A DNA stretch of 61,078 nucleotides from Saccostrea cucullata (Eukaryota): NCBI RefSeq assembly GCF_032062105.1, contig NW_026940900.1:62001-123078 (forward strand), written 5' to 3'. Position 1 is the first letter of the stretch; each line of letters begins with the position of its first letter. Under the pieces are notes generated by a model that searched no databases, was not told the origin of the DNA, and saw only the letters and a program-made list of their open reading frames with translations. Below, piece after piece: positions 9,412-22,000 of the stretch. Position numbers and translations under genes: made by a program.

Positions 9412-9757
9412 CTAACTGCAGATCTGTAGCTTGCTGGTCTGAATAAAAATTGGATGGATTAGGATGATCAGAGACACAGATCTCTGGTCGTCCACCCTAA
9501 TTTCTTCAGACCAGTGAGCTACAGATCTGCAGCTAGAAGGAGTAGAGCACAGGGGCATCTTAGTATATTCACTTGTGTATTTATACATATATGTAGTAGA
9601 GAACAATTAGAATATAGTGTTTAAGATGCCCCTGTGTCAGTGAGTATAGTTTTACAGGTGTTCAGTGGTCACTTTGAGTGCTTTCAACTTGTAAAAATGT
9701 TTTTTTTTTTAAAACCATCTCCAAATAATATTCAAAGTACCCAGTGAATAAGCTGTA
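9412..9757. repeat. Three adjacent foldback (inverted-repeat) units: 9412-9536, 9548-9636, 9653-9757
   Basis: CTGCAGATCTGTAGCT..CTGGTCTGAA / TTCAGACCAG..AGCTACAGATCTGCAG; CACAGGGGCATCTTA / TAAGATGCCCCTGTG; imperfect TACAG..TTCA.TGG..ACTTTGA / TCAAAGT..CCAGTGAA..CTGTA. Confidence 0.75.
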
Positions 9758-9983
9758 ACAACATATATATAAAAAAGATTAACACTTTACTTTAAAAGGA
9801 ATTTTAGTAATATATGTACATGTACAATGCATTTAAATGAAATATAGTTTTTAATAAATACCAGTATTTGGATTAGAAATTCTACAAATACACAAGGACA
9901 ATGAACCAAACACATTATGTAAAATATATAAAAATTTATTTTCAAAAAAGTCAATATGAGATATAAATAATTTGACATCAGGG

Positions 9984-11072
9984 TTATGTGAGACTTTTTT
10001 GTTCTGTTCTACTGTCGAGCATCTTTTGGACTTTCCTACTACCATAAAGTACAGATTTCACTATTCCTGCGGTGAATATGCCTTTAATGCTCTGGCTTCT
10101 GCTGGAACTCTTCACAATATCTGCAATACTCTGTCTCACATAGTCCGCACAGTTACTGTCAAAAGCTAGCTGTCTAATGATTTCCTCTAAGTCAGGGTAT
10201 TTCCCTGGCCTTTTGTGCATACAAGATAAAAGATTTAACTGAACTGTTTTTGGAAGAAGGTTCAAGTGATGAAATTGGGACACATGATTGGGGTATTGTT
10301 CTAAGACACCTTGCTTCATATTCCATTTGACATGTTCCTCTTTTAATAAAATTTGTTCGTAAAGGTTCCTAAAGTAAGCCATATTTGGTTTGACAATATT
10401 AGAAATTTTGTTTTTGTCTTCACCAAATTTCATCCTGAAGTCACCATCGTACGAGAGGGCAGCAATCTGCTGATACAGTTCCTCCTCCGTGAAAGTTTCT
10501 GGAAGTAAAAGTAATGCTGCATGTATGGCATTCTCCAGATTAATTTGCATAGCCGAACACAGCTCCATCTTCTTGGGTGAAATAAGAATTTTGATTGGTT
10601 TATGCATTCTACCACTCACATACAAAGTGTTCCAATCCAATAGGTCAGTTATAAGTTGTTTAGTGCTTATAACTCCATATTTAATTTCTCTCCCCGCACA
10701 CTGAACTTTAGTATTGAAATAAACAGCAGCACCATACTTCTCTTGAATATTTGAAACTTGTTTTGCTCCCAAAAATTTTAGGAATGAATAGTGTTTCCCA
10801 TTTTGTTTCATATTTTTGTAATGCCAGCTGTATGAATCATCTACAACAAATATCAAATCAATCATATTTCCCTTAACTTGGGCATCACTTTGACCCTCCT
10901 GTTTAAATACTCCAGATCCATAAGCAAATGCCATTTGTATTCCTCCAGGAAACTGCTCCAAGATAGCTTCATACTGATCCAAATGCTTTGAGGGATTACT
11001 GTAGGTTGCATATCGTTTTACACAAAACACTGAACGACAAACTGAAAGTCGAGATAAAACAGACCACATCAT
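9984..11072 (-). CDS. TAMM41: Mitochondrial phosphatidate cytidylyltransferase (Tam41), 362 aa, intronless
   Basis: AFAYGSGVFKQ, MIDLIFVVDD, AAVYFNT, IKYGVIS, DLLDWNTLYVSGRMHKP, LSYDGDFRMKFGEDKNKISNIV and QSIKGIFTAG motifs. The Arg/Ser-rich, acid-free N-terminus resembles a mitochondrial presequence. Confidence 0.96.
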   Translation of the reverse strand: MMWSVLSRLSVCRSVFCVKRYATYSNPSKHLDQYEAILEQFPGGIQMAFAYGSGVFKQEGQSDAQVKGNMIDLIFVVDDSYSWHYKNMKQNGKHYSFLKFLGAKQVSNIQEKYGAAVYFNTKVQCAGREIKYGVISTKQLITDLLDWNTLYVSGRMHKPIKILISPKKMELCSAMQINLENAIHAALLLLPETFTEEELYQQIAALSYDGDFRMKFGEDKNKISNIVKPNMAYFRNLYEQILLKEEHVKWNMKQGVLEQYPNHVSQFHHLNLLPKTVQLNLLSCMHKRPGKYPDLEEIIRQLAFDSNCADYVRQSIADIVKSSSRSQSIKGIFTAGIVKSVLYGSRKVQKMLDSRTEQKSLT

Positions 11073-11308
11073 TTCTCTCGCTCAAACACACCAACACCGT
11101 CCACTTCTGAATTCTTCAGATTATCAAGTTGCTTTTTTCCCAACCTATATTGATACTCTATCCTCAATGTGTCTGTTCGAGGCAATTTTGCATTTTTGCG
11201 GAACTCAGTACGGATTATTTCTTTTAAACCTGGTTTATCTTTTGAGAGTTTTAAAAATTCCTTGTAGAGGCTTAAAATTTGAAGCTGAATTTGACTGTGT
11301 TTTGGCAT
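11069..11308 (-). CDS. SDHAF1: Succinate dehydrogenase assembly factor 1 (LYR-motif protein), 79 aa
   Basis: MPKHSQIQLQILSLYKEFLK...IRTEFRKNAKLPRTDTLRIEYQYRLGKKQL parallels vertebrate SDHAF1 (HSRLQRQVLSLYR...[30 protein letters not shown]). Acceptor TTTCCATTTCAG ends at 11331, 22 nt upstream of the ATG. Confidence 0.93.
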   Translation of the reverse strand: MPKHSQIQLQILSLYKEFLKLSKDKPGLKEIIRTEFRKNAKLPRTDTLRIEYQYRLGKKQLDNLKNSEVDGVGVFEREK

Positions 11309-11679
11309 GACAAGTTTTATCAACTTGAATCTGAAATGGAAAAAAGAATCATGTATTATTTGTATATCTTGTAAGAATATCTTGTTAATCAATTAATAAA
11401 TTGCACACATACTCAGTTTAGGCCTTGGTACATTAACAAATACTTAGATCAACCAGAGACTTATATATAGGCCTATCGGTCCCTGGATCAACTATAGTAC
11501 TATTTATTCAGGGCATGTGTCGAGGAAATTCTGACTTATCTATATATCACGTTAAAAATCTCATTATTTTTAGGTTAACGTATTGAAGACAATAAAAATA
11601 TCTAACATTGTTAATTTACTATTGAGGAGATGGTATTAATTTTATGTATATTAATTTAAACACAATGAACACGCCTACC

Positions 11680-12062
11680 AGGATCAATTTGTCCTTCCAT
11701 AAGCTGACTGCATTCTGATTCTGGTTCCTATCATATGGAAAGCGAACCAGCAAAATATTTAGTAAAGCGTACACATGTGTCATGACCCTTTCTTTATTAA
11801 TTTGAAAGACTTATAAAGATTGTTTTAAAAAAATTATTGTTCTCTGTTTTTTCTACACTAAACTGAAAGAATTCGATGACATTTAACAAGATAAAAATCT
11901 TGATAAAAGAATACGCTTTACTTCGAAATAGAAATCGTTCGAGTTAACCAACAAGTTAAAAATAGATATTTTATTTATAGACCTTTATAAACACATTTCA
12001 TTTTGATTTTCTTCTATATTAACGAGGATAGCGTGTGTAGCAGTTCTGTAACGATTGATTCG
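11680..12062. promoter_or_regulatory. Putative bidirectional promoter between SDHAF1/TAMM41 (-) and KCTD3/SHKBP1 (+)
   Basis: Divergent genes. A candidate 5' exon donor (CTG|GTAGGC) at 11679/11678 on - and the KCTD3 ATG at 12063 leave <400 bp between them. Confidence 0.55.
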
Positions 12063-15000
12063 ATGCCAGGAGACGTGATTCACCTCAATGTAGGAGGAAC
12101 AAGGTAAGAAAAGAAGTAATTTAGTAAAATTTCGTTTGTTAAAAATTTTCTGCAGCAAAGTAGTTGCATTTGATTTGTTGTTGCTCATCAAATATGGTTG
12201 CTCCACTATTACATGAGAGTTTCTTTTTCATACAGGTTTTCAACATCAAGACATACCCTGACATGGATTCCAGATTCGTTCTTTACAAGGTATGATTAAA
12301 TCTTAAAAAAGAAAATGCATTGAGTGAGGTACTGTTTAAAACAATATAATGCCCAATTTTTTTAGCCTAGTATCCCCTGGCATGTTCTTGAAATCAAGGG
12401 TGGCGGTCAACCGAGTTTGATTGCTGATGGCCAGATAGCTCAGTCGGTAGAGCACCTGATCAGAGATTCAGGGGGCCAGGGTTCGAATCCCGGTCTGTTC
12501 CACTGCATTTTCTCCTCTCCCTTTACATTTGATGTCGTGACCATGCCCTAGAACCAGAAATGAGCGGGGGTTGGGGTCTTTAGAGGCCAAAGACCTTTAA
12601 GGAGGGAGGAATGTGGCAGTCAGCTGGGTTCGTTCTCCGCTGGCCAATTGTAGCTCAGTGGGTACAGCACCTGACCAGAGATTCAGGGGGCCCAAAGTTT
12701 GAATCATGGTCTGGTCTACTGCATTTTTCTCCTCTCTCCTAACACAAGTAAATATTCTCCTTTCTCCTAACACAAGTAAATTTGCAAAATTTACTGTCAA
12801 AACATTAGATCCTCCTAATTATGTTCCCCAAACGAAGTTGGGGAACATATTGTTTTTACTCTGTTTCTTATTATTATTAAGGTCTTCCATTTCCAACGGA
12901 AGACCTTTCTGTTATTCTTAGGTTTCTTTTCCAGTTTTTTTCTTTTTTTTCTTACCGATTTTGTGCACGCGAGTTCTCGGAAACGGCTTGTTCGATTTTC
13001 ATGAAACTTTCAGGGCTGATGGAACATCAAAAAATCTAGATATATATTTTTTAATTTTGATGACGTCACTTCCGGTTCCGAGATTTTTGCATTTTAGTGA
13101 ATTTCAGAGGGTTAGTTTGTCCGCGAGTTTTCTCGAAAACGGCTTAAAATAGAAACTTGAGATTTTCAGTGATAATAGAGCAATAAATGTAGTTGTGCGG
13201 AACGTATTTCATATTCACCGAAATTGCTTTGTACGGAAGCTAGTTTTGGCCCGAAAATAGTCCTATCGCGAATTTCAAAAATTTTTACACCTTTTCATCG
13301 ATAACTTTTTACCTAGAAATATTTTTTTAAAACATGTATAACAAAAGAAGTGTAGAATTCCAAGATCTTTCAAATGATATCTCGAAAAAAGGGCTGGCCC
13401 CTAAAATTAAGGGCCTAGCGGGGTCGAAAGTTTTTCTTTTATATCTCAAAAAGTATTGAGAATTTGTAATACGTCAAAGAAGCAAAATTGTTCAAAATGT
13501 TAAGCTTCATTTATTGGAGTCATCAAAATACGTCCGGCGACGTCACTTCCGGCCAAACCGGAAGTAGTCAGAAAACGCATATTTTGGCCGTTCTTGACAA
13601 GATTTTGGGTATCATCTGTCACTGGGAGCCTAAAAATTAAATTTCCATCCGTCGTCATCACTTCCGGTCAAACCGAAAGTAGCAAAAATTAGCTTATTTC
13701 TGCTTTAATTAACATAGATTTTGAGGATTTAAACCATTTTTCGGCATTATTACTCAATTTTGTTACAAATAAAAGTAACTTCCGGTCAAACAGGACGGAA
13801 GACCTACTCGTTGCTTTGCAACGAGCTTTGCTCTAGTTATGTTCCCCAAACGAAGTTGGGGAACATATTGTTTTTACTCTGTTTCTTATTATTAAGGTCT
13901 TCCGTCTTCACGGAAGACCTTATAGTGATTCTACTGTTTCTTATTATTCTTTTTATTATTTTTTTGACTTTATAATTTTGTGCACGCGATTTCTCGAAGA
14001 CTACTGGATGGAATGACGTAAAACTTTCAGAAAAGATGTGTCGTAACATGAATTTTGTATATCCGAGAGAAAATTTGGAAACTCACTTCCGGTGCCAAGT
14101 TACGGACAATTTCCTGAAATTAAAATGACATTTTGTCCTCGATTAAACTTAAAAACGGTAAAAGATATCAACATGAAACTTTCAGGGATTATAGATCGTG
14201 ATATATACTATCCAGGACGCGACTTTATGTTCGTCGTCGGTACTTCCTGTCGTTAGGTGAAGGGGATTGAAAAAATCGCATTTTCTAACTTTTTTGTTTT
14301 TCAATATTTTTTATTTATTTTTGGAATATTAATAGAGACACTTCTATTGATGCTTACTATATAAGTTGTTTGAATATTGGTTAATCTGAACTCTAGATAT
14401 TAATATTTGAAAATCTGAAGCGGGTCCAAGATGGCGTCTGCCTCTGTCAACTCCGCCATTTCGCGAGTAGGGGTTTATGGAGGCAGCTGAGCGTTTGATT
14501 AAACCATTCTGACATAATGATACATGAAATGTAAAAAACTACTTGGACTTTCACGTAGTAGTACGTTGTAATTACGTGTCAATCTTAAAACTTAATTTCC
14601 GTTTCACTGCTTTAGTTTAACTGGGCTAGATACGATATGTAATGTGTACAATGTGTTAAATATACCTTCTTAACGTCGAAATAAAATAAAGGCGATAAGA
14701 ACGTTTTATTAATTTAATTTCATTGAAGCTATCACACCTATTTAATAGATCAGTCCAAAGAAAAGGTGCAAACATTTACTCATGGCGTTTGGCGCGAAAT
14801 TATGAATAGTGGCCGGTCGTTTATAATTCTTAGACAGGTGTACTGTTGCAAATGTATACACAAGTATATTTAGAGCACTGCTCCCAATAGCTTAATGGTT
14901 TTCGTGTTAATCAAACACGAAGTAATTACGTTACAATTCTGTGTCAAAATAAAGATGTATTCCAGAGTCTTCTCAAACGTCTTCTGTGACTGGTTTTGGT

Positions 15001-18000
15001 TGGTTCTCAAAGTAGAAAAAGAAAAGACTAAATGTGCAAATGAGAGATACCTACCATCATTTGCTTTACAAGATGGAAATACAGATCTTTAATCATAGTT
15101 AAAAGTTATAGTTTTTTCAAGAAACAATATCGATGCATGTACATATAGTAAGTATAAAACGTATAACCACTGTTTTTCCCATGCACACTTGTGTGACATT
15201 AAACGAATAGAAAAGACAAAAATAAGAAAACCATTTTAATAAGATCGTCTAATGTAGTTTAAATTAACATTCTTTTCTCAAAGATCTGAATCAAGTTATT
15301 GAACATGAATGGTATCTGATTCCTTGACTGTCGTAGAGCGAGGCATGTTTTTTCGGCGAAACATTTCAACCTTTTTTTTTAAGTGTAACTAGTCGGTATA
15401 GTTCACTTCTGAGACGGAAAAAAAATTAAATTATGGTAATTTTCACTGCTTTTGTGTTACTTTTCTGTAGAATGTGTACAGTGTGTTAAATATATTTTCT
15501 AAACCTCGAAATGTAGGCTATGAGAACGTTCTTTTTTCTTAATTTCATTGAAGCTATCACACCTATTTAATAGATCAGTCCAAAGAAAAGGCGCGAAGAT
15601 TTAACGTGGCGTTTGGCGCGAAATTATGAATAATGGTCCGTCTTTTATAATTCTTAGACAGGTGTACTGTAGCAAAAGTATACACAAGTACATTTAGAGC
15701 AGCACTCTCAATAGCGTAATGGTTAGCGCGTAGGGGATAAAAGGGAAAAAAAGCGGATCGGATTTTCGCGCTGGCGACCTGGATTCAATTTTTGACCAAA
15801 ATTTTTTATTCACCTCTCAGCTCGACTTTACGAGTTTTTTTTCCAGAATCGGACGGAAGACCTCTCGTTGCTCGCAACGAGATCGTTTCTAGTTATTATT
15901 ATTAAGGTCTTCCGACTTCCTTCGGAAGACCTTATTGTTATTCGTCTGTTTTTTATTATTATTATTATTATTCTTTTTTTCATAGTTAGGGCGATATCTC
16001 AGCTGTGCGTGGACGGATTTGGAAGATTTTTACAGGGATGATGCATCATGAAAATATCTCCAGACGTGTTTTTCATTTTTTCAAAATTCACCTTCGTTCG
16101 CGATTTTTGGGGATTTTTGTATTTTTTAAAAGGCATTTTGTCCAGCAGTTTTCTCGAGAACGGCTAAAGATATGAAAGTGAAACTCACTGAGGTGATAGA
16201 ACATCAAACTCCATTATGGGGAACGGCCTTTATTTTTCGTCGTCGGCACTTCCGGTCGCAAACGGAAGTGAATTCAAAAAGTCCCATTTCTCAACTCTTT
16301 TGTTTTTCAATATTTTTCTTTAGAATTTACAGGGTTAATAGTGTGTCTTATGAGAATTCTAAATATGTGTTTAGTATCTTGATGCGTGCATATATTGAAA
16401 AGATATGACCAAACCAAACTTTCTCCTACCGTCGGGGGTTCGAATCCCGCTGTGGGCGTTTCAAATTTTTTTTCTTTGTTTCTGTCTTTTTTCAGCTTCA
16501 AATGACTTTTATATCTTTCATATCACATATGGAATATTTTGCCGATTTTTAAAAGCTTTTTTTTGAGATTTTTGAGGAATACCTGTAATTATCATGATAT
16601 ATGTTGAGAGACTGTTGTAAATAAACGTGAGCAAAAAATACATTCTGAAATCTATTTCATGGGATGACGCAGCATAGAACTCTAAAGAAAAGTCGGTCGG
16701 AAGACCTGCTTGTTGCTCCAGCAACAAGAACGCATCTAGTTATTATTATTTTTCTTCTTCTTCTTCCTGGGTACTTTTTTGTCCGGGAATGATCTTGTAA
16801 ACTGTTCGTCCGAGGTAGGTTAAACCTTTTTAGGGTAAGTAGACATGTTATGCAGATTTGCGGAATCAAGGTCATTTTGCGCGCACGTGCTTGCAAGAGC
16901 GCGCACGTGCAACACTTGAAATAACCAATATAATAGATATAGTCGGAACTTTTCTATTTTTTGATAAAATGCTTTGAAACTCATAATGTAAGGATACATT
17001 AGTAGTATAGACAAGATGGCATGGTCAAAATAGCAAGATCTCACGCGCATGCACGTGCGCTTCGCTCTGATTGGCTGAAACTAAAGTCTCAATATCTTTC
17101 TTGTTTCTTGTCATAATCTTTTGAAATTTTGAACATGGTCCTACATTATGAAGATCTAGAGCATGATATATTAAAATTTTAATAAAAGCATGCGCATGCG
17201 CATGTGCTGTAATCTGATTGGCTAAAACTTTAAATGGCTATATCTCCTTTGTTTTTTGACGAAGTGCTTTGAAATTTAAAACATAGTCATGCATTACGAT
17301 ATCCTAAAATATGATATAGAAAATATTCATGAAATCACGCGCATGCACGTGTGCTGCAATCTGATTGGCTGAAACTTCAAATGGCTATAACTTTCTTGTT
17401 TTTCAACCAAACAGGATGGGATTTAGAACTTGGATAAATATAAGGGACTCCTACAAGAAGGTGTAGTCATTATGCACGTGCTTGCACGTGTGTGCACGTC
17501 AAATGAGTAAAATAAAAAATACACTCGAATGAGTGCATTTTTTAATACTTTTGGATTAAATGCTTTGATATTATTAAAATTTTAGATAGTGTAGACAAGA
17601 TAAGATGGTCTTTACACAAATGAACACGCGTGCAATGCCTATTTTTTAAATATATTTTGTATTTTTCTTGGAAGACCTTGATTAAGTCTAAATTCCATAA
17701 AGTATTTCTTATTTAATAGAGATAACAGGGAATATGGCACCAAAAGGGTGTTGGGAAGCGTTTGGGGAACATCTGTAACAGTCCCCGTTACAATTAGCAC
17801 TAGTTAAGGTCTTCCGTTTTCACGGAAGACCTTCTAGTGATTCTACTGTTTCTTATTATTATTATTATTATTATTATTATTTTTTTCCCCAAAATTTTGT
17901 GCACGCGATTTCTCGAAAACTATTCAGTGGTTTTTAATTAAACTTTCAGGAATTATGCGTCATTATATGAAGTTGTGGCATGATAGAAAAATTTGGAATA

Positions 18001-18992
18001 CTCACCTTTGGTTCCAAGTTATTGACACTTTTCTGATATTAAAATGCAATTTTGTCCCCCCTTTTTTTCGAAAATGGTTTAAGATATTAACTGGAGACCT
18101 TTTAGAGATGAAAGATGATGACTTTTAGATATGACGAATCACCTATTCGTGTGTCGTCGGTACTTCCGGTTGCTGCCGGAAGCGAAATTAAAAAGTCCGC
18201 ATTTTCTAACTTTTTTGTTTTTCAATATTTTTCATTTATTTTTGGAATGGTAATAGAGACCCTTCTTATAATGCTTACTGTATGATTTGTTTGAATATTG
18301 ATAAATCCAAACTCTAGATATTAACAATTAAAAATCTGAAGCGAGTCCAAAATGGCGGCCGTCTCTGTCAACTCCGACATTTCGCAATAGGGGTTTACGG
18401 AGGCAGCCGAACGTTTGCTTGAACGAAAGTTACATAGGGACAAATGAAATGTAAAGGAATACTTGGATTTTCACGTCATAGTTACGTTGCAATTTTGTGT
18501 TAAACTACGTTCTTCTTAAACGTCTTCGAATTCTATAATTGGTTTTGACTGGTTCTCAAAGTAAAAAAAGGTGTTACTTGCTTACATACTATATGGACTT
18601 TGTAAAATGTGTTAAATATACTTTCTAATCGTCGAATTTTAGGTTACATGAACGGTTTTTTTATTTCATTGAAGCTATCACACGTATTAAATAGAACATT
18701 TCATAGAAAAGGCGCCAAGATTAACTCGTGGCGTTTGGGCGAAATTATGAATAGTGACTAGCCTTTTATAATTCTAAAACAAAAGCACTGTTATACAGAG
18801 GTATATACATAAAGATTTAGAGCAGAGGTCCCAATAGCGTAATATTTAGCGCGTTCGATTTTCATGCTGGCGACTTGGATTCAATCTCCCTTGAGTGCAA
18901 TAATTTTTTTTACATTTTCATCTCGACTTTACGTTTTTTTTAACGGAATCGGACGGAAGACCTCTCGTTGCTCGCAACGAGATCGTATCTAG

Positions 18993-19023
<31 letters not shown>

Positions 19024-22000
19024 CTACTGATTCGTTTGTTTCTTTTCCACTATTATTATTATTATTATTTTTTTTCTTACCGATTTTGTGCAGGCGATTT
19101 CTCGAGAACGCCTCGACAGATCTTTATGAAACTTTCAGCAATGATGGCAAATCATATGAACTTAAGGCGTTTTTTTTAATTTTGCCGTCGTCACTTCCGG
19201 TCGCGAGATACGGCCAATTTTCTTTTTTTAAAGTGTCATTTTGTCCGGAAGTGTTCTCAAAAACGGTATGAGATTGAGTCTTGAAACTTTCAGGGATGAT
19301 AGATTGTGACAGGCTCTCTTGAATTTTGTATAAAGTTTTTGTTGCCGTCACGTCCGTTGTCCACCGGAAGTAGTTTAAAAATATGCAAAATTTTATTTTT
19401 TTCTTTTTTAAATATTTCTTATATAGGCAAATAGAGTGTCTCGAGTATTATTATGTCCACCGGAAGTTATTTTTTCCAAACCGGAAGTAGTCCAAAAAAT
19501 GAGCATTTTTCATCGAAATTATCAGGGATGATTCCTTCACACTCAGAGAGGAGTTATAGGTCATTTTTAGTACTTCCGGTCACACCGGAAGTGAATTATA
19601 AAGACCGGAAGTTGTCTGAAATTTACAAATTTCACTCTTAAATGTGTTCTCACGTATTTAGAAGAATTGATATGAACTTTTTTTTTATTTTAAGTTGTTT
19701 TATGATCGTATCAAAAATCGAACGGAAGACCTACTCGTTGCTTGCAACGAGATCTCCTCTAGTTAAGGTCTTTCGTCTTCACGGAAGACCTTATAGTTAT
19801 TCTACTGTTTCTTATTATTATTATTATTATTCTTATTTTTTTTCCCAAAATTTTGTGCACGCGATTTCTCAGCAACTATTCGGCGGATTTCTATGAAATT
19901 TTCAGGAATTATGCGCAATAAGATGAACTTGATACATTTTTAAGGAAATTTGGAAATTTGCTTCTGGTGCCAAGTTATGGGCAATTTCCTGATTTTAAAA
20001 TGCAATTTTGTCGCCCCTTTTTTTCGAAAATGGCTAAAGATATGAACTGGAGACTTATTGGAGATGATAGTTCGTGACTTTGTGGTTTGCAGAATCACCT
20101 TTTTGTGCGTCGTCAGTTCTTCCGGTTGTAACGAGATGCAAATTTAAAAAAATCGTATTTTCTAACTTTTTTGTTTTTCAGTATTTTTCATTTATTTTTG
20201 GTTTGTTAATAGAAACCCTCCTGATAATGCTTACTATATAATTTGTTTGAATGTTGATCAATCTAAACTCTAGATATTAGCATTCAAAAATCTGAAGCGG
20301 GTCCAAAATGGCGGCTGTCTCTGTCAACGCCGACATTTCGCAATAGGGATTTACGGAGGCAGTCGAGCGTTTGCTTGAATGAAAGTAACATAAGGATAAA
20401 TGAAATGTATAGGAATACTTGGATAGTCACGTCATAGTTACGTTGCAGTTCTGTGTCAAACTAACTTCTTGTATAATTGGTTTTGGCTAGTTCCCAAAGT
20501 TGAAAAAGAAAAGACTAAATGTGCAAATAAAATTCGATACCTAATATCTTTTGTGCACCACGGAAAATAGATCTCATCAAATTTATAAGTAATACTTTCT
20601 CAAAAAAGAATATTGATTAATATTGTCAGTAGAAATCTTAACCACTGTTTTTCCTATGCACACTTGTGTCATATTAAACTAATAAATAAGACAAAAATAA
20701 GAAGACGATTTTTTTAAAGATCGCTTCATGGAGTTTATTTTAGCATTCTTGTCTCAAAGACCTGATTCAAGTTATGGAGCATAAATGATATCTGATTCCT
20801 TGACCATCATAGGGCGAGCCATGTTTTTCGGCGAAACGTTTCAACCTTTTTCAATTAACTAATCGGGATAGTTTACTTTGGGGATAAACAGGAAATTGAA
20901 AAAAGTTAGAAATTCATAACCATTTCACCGCTTTAGTGTTACAGGCATATATACCATATGGAATTTGTAAAATGTGTTAAATATACTTTCTAAACCTCGA
21001 ATCTTAGGCTATAAGAATGTTCTTTTTTTAATTTCATTGAAGCTATCACACCTATTTACTAGAACATTCCAAAGAAAAGGTGCGAAGATTAACTCGTGGC
21101 GTTAGGTGCTAAATTTTGAATAGTGACCCGCCTTTCATAATTTTAAAAGAGAATCACTGTTTCATAAATATATATAAATAGATTTAGAGAAGAGGTCCCG
21201 ATAGCGTAATATTTAGTGCCGTCGGAATTTCATGCTGGCTACATGGGTTCAATTCTCCTTGTGTGCAATTTTTTTTTTACTTTTTCAGCTCGATTTTACG
21301 TTTTCTTTCCGGAATCGGACGGAAGACCTCTCGTTGCTCGCAACGAGTTTCTCATCTAGTTATTATTATTTTTCTTCTCGGGAAAATATTGTCCGCGAAT
21401 GATCTTGTAAAGTACACATCCGATTAAGGGGAAACCTTTTTAGGGTAAGTAGGCATGTTATGTAGATTTGCGGAACGAAGGTCATTTTGCGCGCACGTGC
21501 TTGCAAGAGCGCGCACGTGCAACACGTGAAATGACCAATATACTTGAAATTGCCGTAACTTTTACATTTTTCGATGTAATGCTTTGATTTTTATAATATA
21601 TAGACACATTATAAATGTAGGTAAGATGACATTGTCAACATGCCATTTTGTGTGCACGTGCTTGCAAGAGCGCGCACGAGCAACACGTGAAATGACCGAT
21701 TTAATTGATATAGGCGTATATTTTTACCTTTTTGATGAAATGCTTTGAAACTCATAATATAAGGATATAGTAGTAGCATAGACAATATGACATGGTCAAA
21801 ATAGCAAGATCTCACGCGCATGCACGTGTGCTTTGCTCTGATTGGCTGAAACTAAAGTCTCAAAATCTTTCTTGTTTTTTTATGAAATCATTTGAAATTT
21901 TGAACATAGCCATGCATTAGGATATCCTACAACATGAAATATAACAATTTTCATGAAAACACGTGCATGCACGTGCGCTGCAATCTGATTGGCTGAAACT

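Follow-up and report, generated by a model that had tools for sequence, protein, structure and literature searches.

SDHAF1 and TAMM41, two unrelated mitochondrial genes, have stayed head to tail in bivalves, a gastropod and annelids, and the distance between them ranges from 87 nt down to two kinds of overlap. The pairing is old, and the cellular stop-start overlap between the two genes in the oyster Saccostrea cucullata is real. Both reading frames are likely carried by one shared mRNA. Leaky scanning is the route to the second frame in oysters that we prefer, with roughly even confidence. A virus-like TURBS element around a UGGGA motif upstream of the junction, which an earlier note had put forward as a possible cellular use of this mechanism, is mostly unsupported.

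The analysed DNA is a stretch of 61,078 nt (the window; NCBI RefSeq assembly GCF_032062105.1, contig NW_026940900.1, positions 62,001 to 123,078 of the forward strand), and all positions are those of the window. The features discussed are collected in Table 1.

Table 1. Positions of the SDHAF1-TAMM41 features in the window
Feature	Positions	Strand	Details
Splice acceptor	11345-11331	-	13/14 pyrimidines, AG at 11332-11331; begins the exon containing both ORFs; contigs in 4/4 runs stop matching at 11330-11331
SDHAF1 (LYR family) ORF, ORF1	11308-11069	-	79 aa; Pfam PF05347, E 4.5e-10
Sole AUG within ORF1	11193-11164	-	Out of frame, 9 codons, A at -3
Hairpin 1, TATCAA-tatag-GTTG-ggaaaaaag-CAAC-TTGATA	11155-11122	-	Inner GUUG/CAAC stem predicted at 0.74-0.97 (4 contexts)
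Possible P1-like 5' arm	11155-11147	-	Tyr-Gln-Tyr codons
UGGGA motif	11142-11138	-	Leu56-Gly57 codons (TTG GGA), preceded by U at 11143 (GUUGGGA)
Hairpin 2, TCTGAA-gaa-TTCAGA	11120-11106	-	Well predicted, 0.45-0.94
Possible P1-like 3' arm	11097-11089	-	Gly-Val-Gly-Val codons; closes 16 nt before the AUG; 4/9 pairs G-U; duplex -5.6 kcal/mol
AUGAUG junction	11072-11067	-	AUGA overlap (AUG 11072-11070, stop 11071-11069) and UGAUG overlap (AUG 11069-11067)
TAMM41 ORF, ORF2	11072-9984	-	362 aa, intronless; Pfam PF09139, E 7.7e-115, match from residue 35

Results

Reading frames and junction in Saccostrea

The Pfam matches of both proteins (PF05347 for SDHAF1 and PF09139 for TAMM41) were above cut-off. 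ORF1 was named after a same-family protein of Crassostrea virginica annotated as SDHAF1-like (XP_078313707.1), and the TAMM41 protein shares a cluster at 90% with XP_061162624.1 of Saccostrea echinata, to which it is 98% identical. Residues 1-25 of TAMM41 contain four R/K and no D/E, and this N-terminus would fit a mitochondrial presequence.

The junction reads AAA TGA TG TGG, so that the SDHAF1 stop codon overlaps two AUGs, at -1 and at +2. The two ORFs lie in different frames, and no slippery heptamer of the type XXXYYYZ was seen at the oyster junction. Weak AGs are present within ORF1 (11324-11239); between 11107 and the TAMM41 AUG there is no acceptor-like AG with more than 8/14 pyrimidines. 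A search of Rfam over 9500-12300 gave one weak match, which lies outside the UGGGA element.

RNA contigs across both frames

Contigs of four of the 24 listed runs (X1, X2, X10 and X13) were aligned to the window; X10 alone is recorded as RNA, and the RNA nature of the other three is a guess. In three of the four runs a single contig extended without a break from the acceptor through SDHAF1 and TAMM41 (X1 10001-11331, X10 9854-11331 and X13 9978-11330), although a contig over two genes is not proof of one transcript and rare variants are dropped from contigs. The X2 contig was split within TAMM41, at 10877-10899. Beyond the acceptor, where the match ended in all four runs, the contigs continued with other letters, as spliced RNA would. 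Each of the X1, X10 and X13 contigs showed 35-45 differences from the window and thus stems from an individual other than that of the window; among the differences listed, none fell within 11069-11308. None of the splice joints listed led to a first exon of the SDHAF1-TAMM41 mRNA. SDHAF1 and TAMM41 are likely to lie on one shared mRNA, which is very probably the main source of TAMM41.

Spliced exons at 12063-12103, 12236-12289 and 22822-22868 on the plus strand, joined in all four runs, mark a gene that lies head to head with SDHAF1-TAMM41 and that may be a BTB-domain, KCTD3-like gene. As its start codon and that of SDHAF1 are only 755 nt apart in this head-to-head arrangement, a shared promoter is likely. 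The region 12300-22900 of the window holds many dispersed repeats, over which hundreds of short contigs were found in all four runs. CG33331 of Drosophila is presumably the fly Tam41. CG33331 is listed as having its promoter and 5' UTR in common with the gene downstream of it (PMC4528330, row 150 of supplement file 6, seen in excerpt).

Linkage of the two genes in other species

An alignment scan for TAMM41 kept 80 of 194 metagenome loci, giving 82 loci together with two genome loci. An SDHAF1 profile was searched against these 82; a broad SDHAF1 alignment was too variable for a locus scan. SDHAF1 was found directly upstream of TAMM41 and on the same strand in nine of the 82 fetched loci, and eight of the nine ORF1s scored over the Pfam cut-off, the exception being L052 with 22.3 against 24.8 bits. 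A quick tree that included 39 of the 82 loci grouped L018 and L033 with heterodont clams and L001, L002, L003 and L064 with annelids, and left L031 and the pair L047/L052 unplaced. Three database proteins (P0245, P0250 and P0291, from Potamilus, Pomacea and one annelid-clade species) are models with LYR and Tam41 fused; because a separate TAMM41 model (XP_025104205.1) exists for Pomacea as well, they are probably gene-prediction joins across the junction. A search for longer fused proteins returned two matches among 8000 candidates and was insensitive, missing two known fusions. It is from the linkage in nine loci and the three fused models that we conclude that the pairing is old.

Annelid-clade loci such as L004, L021, L022 and L030 showed no SDHAF1 in the 1.8-4 kb upstream of TAMM41, and L012 showed none in 326 nt; loss of linkage applies here to the fetched DNA only, and many of the other loci are short or come from distant groups. 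L004 and L021 carry acceptor-like sequence shortly before the TAMM41 start, so that the pair is either lost or split by an intron. Two bacterial genome bins contain Tam41-family ORFs with bacterial-looking neighbours (L081:3923-4876 and L082:3944-4852).

The distances from the SDHAF1 stop to the TAMM41 AUG in the nine relatives are +47, +61, +60, +87, +15, +24, -1, +2 and +36. TAMM41 is in frame with SDHAF1 at five of the seven gapped loci (L003, L018, L031, L033 and L064). One stop codon alone separates the two frames in L031 and L033, where readthrough would yield a fusion. The TAMM41 coding sequence is a single open frame in the window (9984-11072) and in L001-L003, L018 and L033. Vertebrate TAMM41 has several introns. 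The pair could have arisen from a TAMM41 retrocopy that landed behind SDHAF1.

Other oysters were compared as proteins. Lys is the last residue of SDHAF1 in all 43 proteins; at residue 2 of TAMM41, all 27 proteins have M, T, N or I, whose codons begin with A. Judged from these residues, the AUGA overlap appears to be kept in four oyster lineages, and the second AUG of the junction would be limited to Saccostrea.

Comparison of the last 100 nt of SDHAF1 at the ten linked loci gave GTCAA in eight and ATTGA in seven as shared words, both within the null (39/500 and 212/500, respectively), and folding energies gave no sign of conserved structure (z from -0.6 to +3.6). ATTGA (11170-11163 on the minus strand of the window) was expected at 3.95 loci, lies mostly in Ile-Glu codons and is not significant as the best of many words.

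Leaky scanning and reinitiation as routes to TAMM41

Our preferred reading is a bicistronic mRNA with leaky scanning as the main route in oysters, for which we judge the chances about even. A capped, spliced mRNA would carry both ORFs, and most 40S subunits would start at the SDHAF1 AUG, whose context GUCAUGC has a purine at -3 and C at +4. Some 40S subunits would bypass this AUG and then either bypass the internal AUG as well or translate the 9-codon frame that it opens and return to scanning; those that do so would start at the AUG at 11072 and produce TAMM41 with its own presequence. Since scanning does not need a gap, the gap of 15-87 nt found in most relatives could have shrunk to an overlap in oysters.

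Between the two starts Saccostrea has a single AUG. An internal Met in SDHAF1 occurs in none of the 43 oyster proteins compared with 31 of 150 other matches, and the intervening AUGs number 1, 2 and 2 at the three overlap loci and 2-9 at the seven gapped loci (3 of 120 permutations as low); the 43 oyster proteins represent one clade and L047 and L052 are sisters, so that these counts are not independent. We also count the range of offsets, -1 to +87, for leaky scanning because it reaches far outside the -8 to +6 of TURBS. These observations point to leaky scanning at loci whose gap has closed and, at those that still have one, perhaps to resumed scanning. Compared with synonymous recodings, none of the nine relatives showed AUG depletion (2-9 AUGs between the starts, up to eight within ORF1), and leaky scanning therefore cannot be a rule for the whole clade. 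In 11 of the 43 oyster SDHAF1 proteins (P0004 and related) an N-terminal extension with KKIQSPSK starts from an upstream in-frame AUG that apparently lies on a spliced leader; this is one more AUG to pass and counts against leaky scanning. So do the A at -3 of the internal AUG, the kept AUGA overlap, which leaky scanning does not require, and the P1-like pairing described below, which it leaves unexplained.

Termination-reinitiation without a TURBS is rather unlikely in our estimate. Some 40S subunits would remain on the mRNA after the 79 codons of ORF1 and initiate anew at the closest AUG, which they would reach by sliding a short way in the overlap species and by resumed scanning in the gapped species. 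At all ten linked loci the start of ORF2 is no more than 87 nt from the stop, with no AUG in the gap at six of them, and for this route the AUGs inside the ORF1s of relatives would be no hindrance. The apparent keeping of AUGA across oysters points the same way, and cellular reinitiation at overlapping ORFs has been reported (excerpts of PMC10275272). Against this route, a further element is usually required for reinitiation once a long ORF has been translated (PMC10275272, same excerpts). The last 100 nt of the ten loci share neither word nor structure beyond the null given above.

The UGGGA motif and the TURBS reading

In an oyster-specific TURBS, UGGGA would pair with helix 26 of the 18S rRNA, a P1 stem would hold the motif, and the tethered 40S subunit would restart at AUGA. 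We consider this improbable. The history that it implies, in which a change from Arg to Leu made UGGGA, the Tyr-Gln-Tyr and Gly-Val-Gly-Val codons came to form P1 and the space between the genes closed down to AUGA, is doubtful in the same way.

The motif, both hairpin strings and the stop/start junction are present in the letters as the earlier note had read them, and its spacing of about 65-70 nt agrees with the 65 nt that separate the end of UGGGA from the first AUG. The 5-mer does lie in Leu-Gly codons, as was cautioned there. Among 20000 synonymous recodings of SDHAF1, 17.8% contain UGGGA at -95..-25, and 5 sites in 5373 nt of plain coding background correspond to about 5% for every 60 positions. 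UGGGA is thus likely a by-product of two codons.

The motif had been described as displayed on top of a hairpin. Folding predictions do not confirm this: its U and first G pair within the GUUG/CAAC stem in all four contexts, with unpaired probabilities of 0.00-0.01 for U and 0.03-0.25 for the first G. All five bases are predicted to be open with a probability of 0.001-0.002 in each of five fragments, at an opening cost of about 4 kcal/mol. Of 300 synonymous recodings that retain the motif, 261 leave it just as exposed or more so. The outer TATCAA/TTGATA pairs depend on context (0.02-0.62). The folding of 11067-11160 was not stronger than that of shuffles (z = -0.81, 42/200 as good; other four excerpts +0.83, -1.84, -0.44 and -2.31) or of synonymous recodings (z = -0.15, 134/300 as good).

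The earlier note saw no motif 2*/2 pairing near the overlap, which is partly wrong, since the two arms at 11155-11147 and 11097-11089 can pair on the minus strand. The resulting P1-like stem has 9 bp, lies 4 nt before UGGGA, leaves a linker of 16 nt to the AUG and has C-G as its fourth pair; it can be extended by a G-U pair, which makes this C-G the fifth. A 9-bp pairing of this kind is reached by 88 of 3000 recodings that keep UGGGA, and among the 76 UGGGA sites in the window only the one in SDHAF1 has it, figures obtained with a P1 descriptor applied after the sequence had been seen. By our reading of the codons, six of the nine pairs are nearly fixed by the amino acids. The predicted probability of the P1-like fold is 0.98 in the shortest of five fragments (77 nt), where 64 of 500 recodings fold as well, but fades to 0.23, 0.27, 0.00 and 0.00 in the four longer ones.

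According to excerpts of PMC11921876, the start codon of viral TURBS lies within -8 to +6 of the stop, with AUGA and UGAUG among the commonest overlaps, and a purine stands directly before UGGGA in all viral examples, in which the ribosome-complementary motif is unpaired. P1 flanks the motif, closes 12-23 nt before the AUG and has C-G as fourth pair in all viral cases; in the large form, which includes P2, the letter just 5' of P1 is C (PMC11921876, excerpts). In Saccostrea, the overlaps at -1 and +2 fall within this range and UGGGA lies upstream, the latter with a chance of 0.18. The letter before UGGGA is U (11143) and not a purine, the motif is predicted to be paired, and the possible P1 is preceded by G (11156) and not by C. 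The excerpts also record a virus that has UGGGA and an overlap yet no activity, and state that a matched motif is needed in yeast (PMC11921876).

The earlier note would have taken absence of the motif from relatives that keep the overlap as a refutation. UGGGA is absent from the last 100 nt of SDHAF1 in both such relatives (L047 with AUGA, L052 with UAAUG), and none of the nine linked relatives has it at the orthologous codons. Anywhere in the last 100 nt it occurs in one of nine, L002, whose copy sits in Met-Gly codons 41 nt ahead of the stop while the AUG lies 61 nt past the stop; L031 is unable to encode it in this region. Oyster Leu56 sits where Arg is found in 95 of 150 other matches and Leu in four, and 104 of the 150 other SDHAF1-like proteins cannot encode UGGGA at these codons. 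RLGK is kept in all 43 oyster proteins, and UGGGA is thus encodable in all of them.

A scan of viral contigs with primers for oyster 18S gave four chance matches, none of them rRNA. The helix-26 loop of bivalves may differ. Described as conserved in vertebrates (excerpts of PMC7354566), the UCCC loop varies among invertebrates: by our own location of the helix, UCCCA is present in one of four readable 18S types, namely in the branchiopod and not in two copepod types and the hydrozoan (PMC4864665 Table3.CSV, in part; its ten mollusc 18S rows all end before helix 26).

What stands of the proposed cellular use of TURBS is the overlap between two Pfam-confirmed genes, crossed by contigs in three of four runs; the absence of the motif from the overlap relatives and of three features of the viral class speaks against it. 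In all likelihood UGGGA has no tethering role.

Separate mRNAs and fused proteins

TAMM41 could also come mainly from a separate mRNA, made from an alternative acceptor or a start site inside SDHAF1, the overlap then being a matter of compaction; we regard this as quite unlikely. At 114 of 159 dicistronic loci in Drosophila, one or both genes also have a monocistronic isoform (excerpts of PMC4528330), acceptor-like AGs occur in the gap of L003, and the weak AGs in ORF1 and the dropping of rare variants from contigs would leave room for such an mRNA. The unbroken contigs through ORF1 and the junction in three of four runs argue against it, as do the gaps of L002, L031 and L033, which contain no AG. 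A fused SDHAF1-TAMM41 protein arising by frameshift, readthrough or splicing is very improbable despite the three LYR+Tam41 database proteins and the five of seven gapped loci in frame, two of them without a second stop, given that the oyster frames differ without a slippery heptamer being seen, that TAMM41 has a presequence-like start in five of five oyster proteins checked and that Pomacea has its separate TAMM41 model.

Discussion

The conserved SDHAF1-TAMM41 pair is a real finding, and the UGGGA itself is probably ordinary. The gaps of the linked loci form a natural series on the way in which animal ribosomes get to a second ORF and on whether the route shifts once the gap closes, and the junction accounts for annotation faults in the form of fused LYR+Tam41 models in three genomes. 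We found no earlier report of the pair in the open-licence literature; the sole paper found that names both genes, seen in part, is on a protist proteome. Bicistronic animal mRNAs as such are known, with 159 pairs in Drosophila (PMC4528330, excerpts).

TURBS are known from caliciviruses, influenza B and hapaviruses (excerpts of PMC11921876, PMC3035654 and PMC4090194). The oyster junction resembles them in its AUGA/UGAUG overlap, the UGGGA 65 nt upstream and a possible P1 that ends 16 nt before the AUG with C-G as fourth pair. It differs in that the purine is missing, the motif is predicted to be half-paired, P1 is unstable in context and the motif is not conserved in the nine relatives; moreover, the upstream ORF is a cellular gene of 79 codons and not a long viral ORF. 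Were the TURBS reading true, a cellular mRNA would use a viral mechanism, and cardiolipin-precursor synthesis would be coupled to complex II assembly via 18S tethering. It would also answer whether cellular mRNAs carry TURBS-like elements, a question left open by a 2023 review (PMC10275272, excerpts).

Coupled reinitiation without TURBS has been described for SART1, CHV1, HvV190S and human overlapping ORFs (excerpts of PMC10275272). Like these, the oyster junction has an overlapping stop and start without proven rRNA pairing; no required upstream or downstream element was found in it.

Leaky scanning has been shown for algal and Drosophila bicistrons (excerpts of PMC11291117), including Drosophila stoned/Snapin (excerpts of PMC4528330). 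The oyster ORF1 is likewise short and nearly free of AUGs, and LYR-motif proteins are also found in conserved algal bicistrons. In contrast to these systems, the gapped relatives lack AUG depletion.

The human MIEF1 mRNA, in which a LYR-family uORF (PF05347) precedes MIEF1 (excerpts of PMC4383229), has the same layout of a small PF05347 protein first and a larger mitochondrial protein second on one mRNA. The SDHAF1-TAMM41 pair differs from it in combining another LYR member with another partner, in the stop/start overlap of the oysters and in its recurrence across molluscs and annelids.
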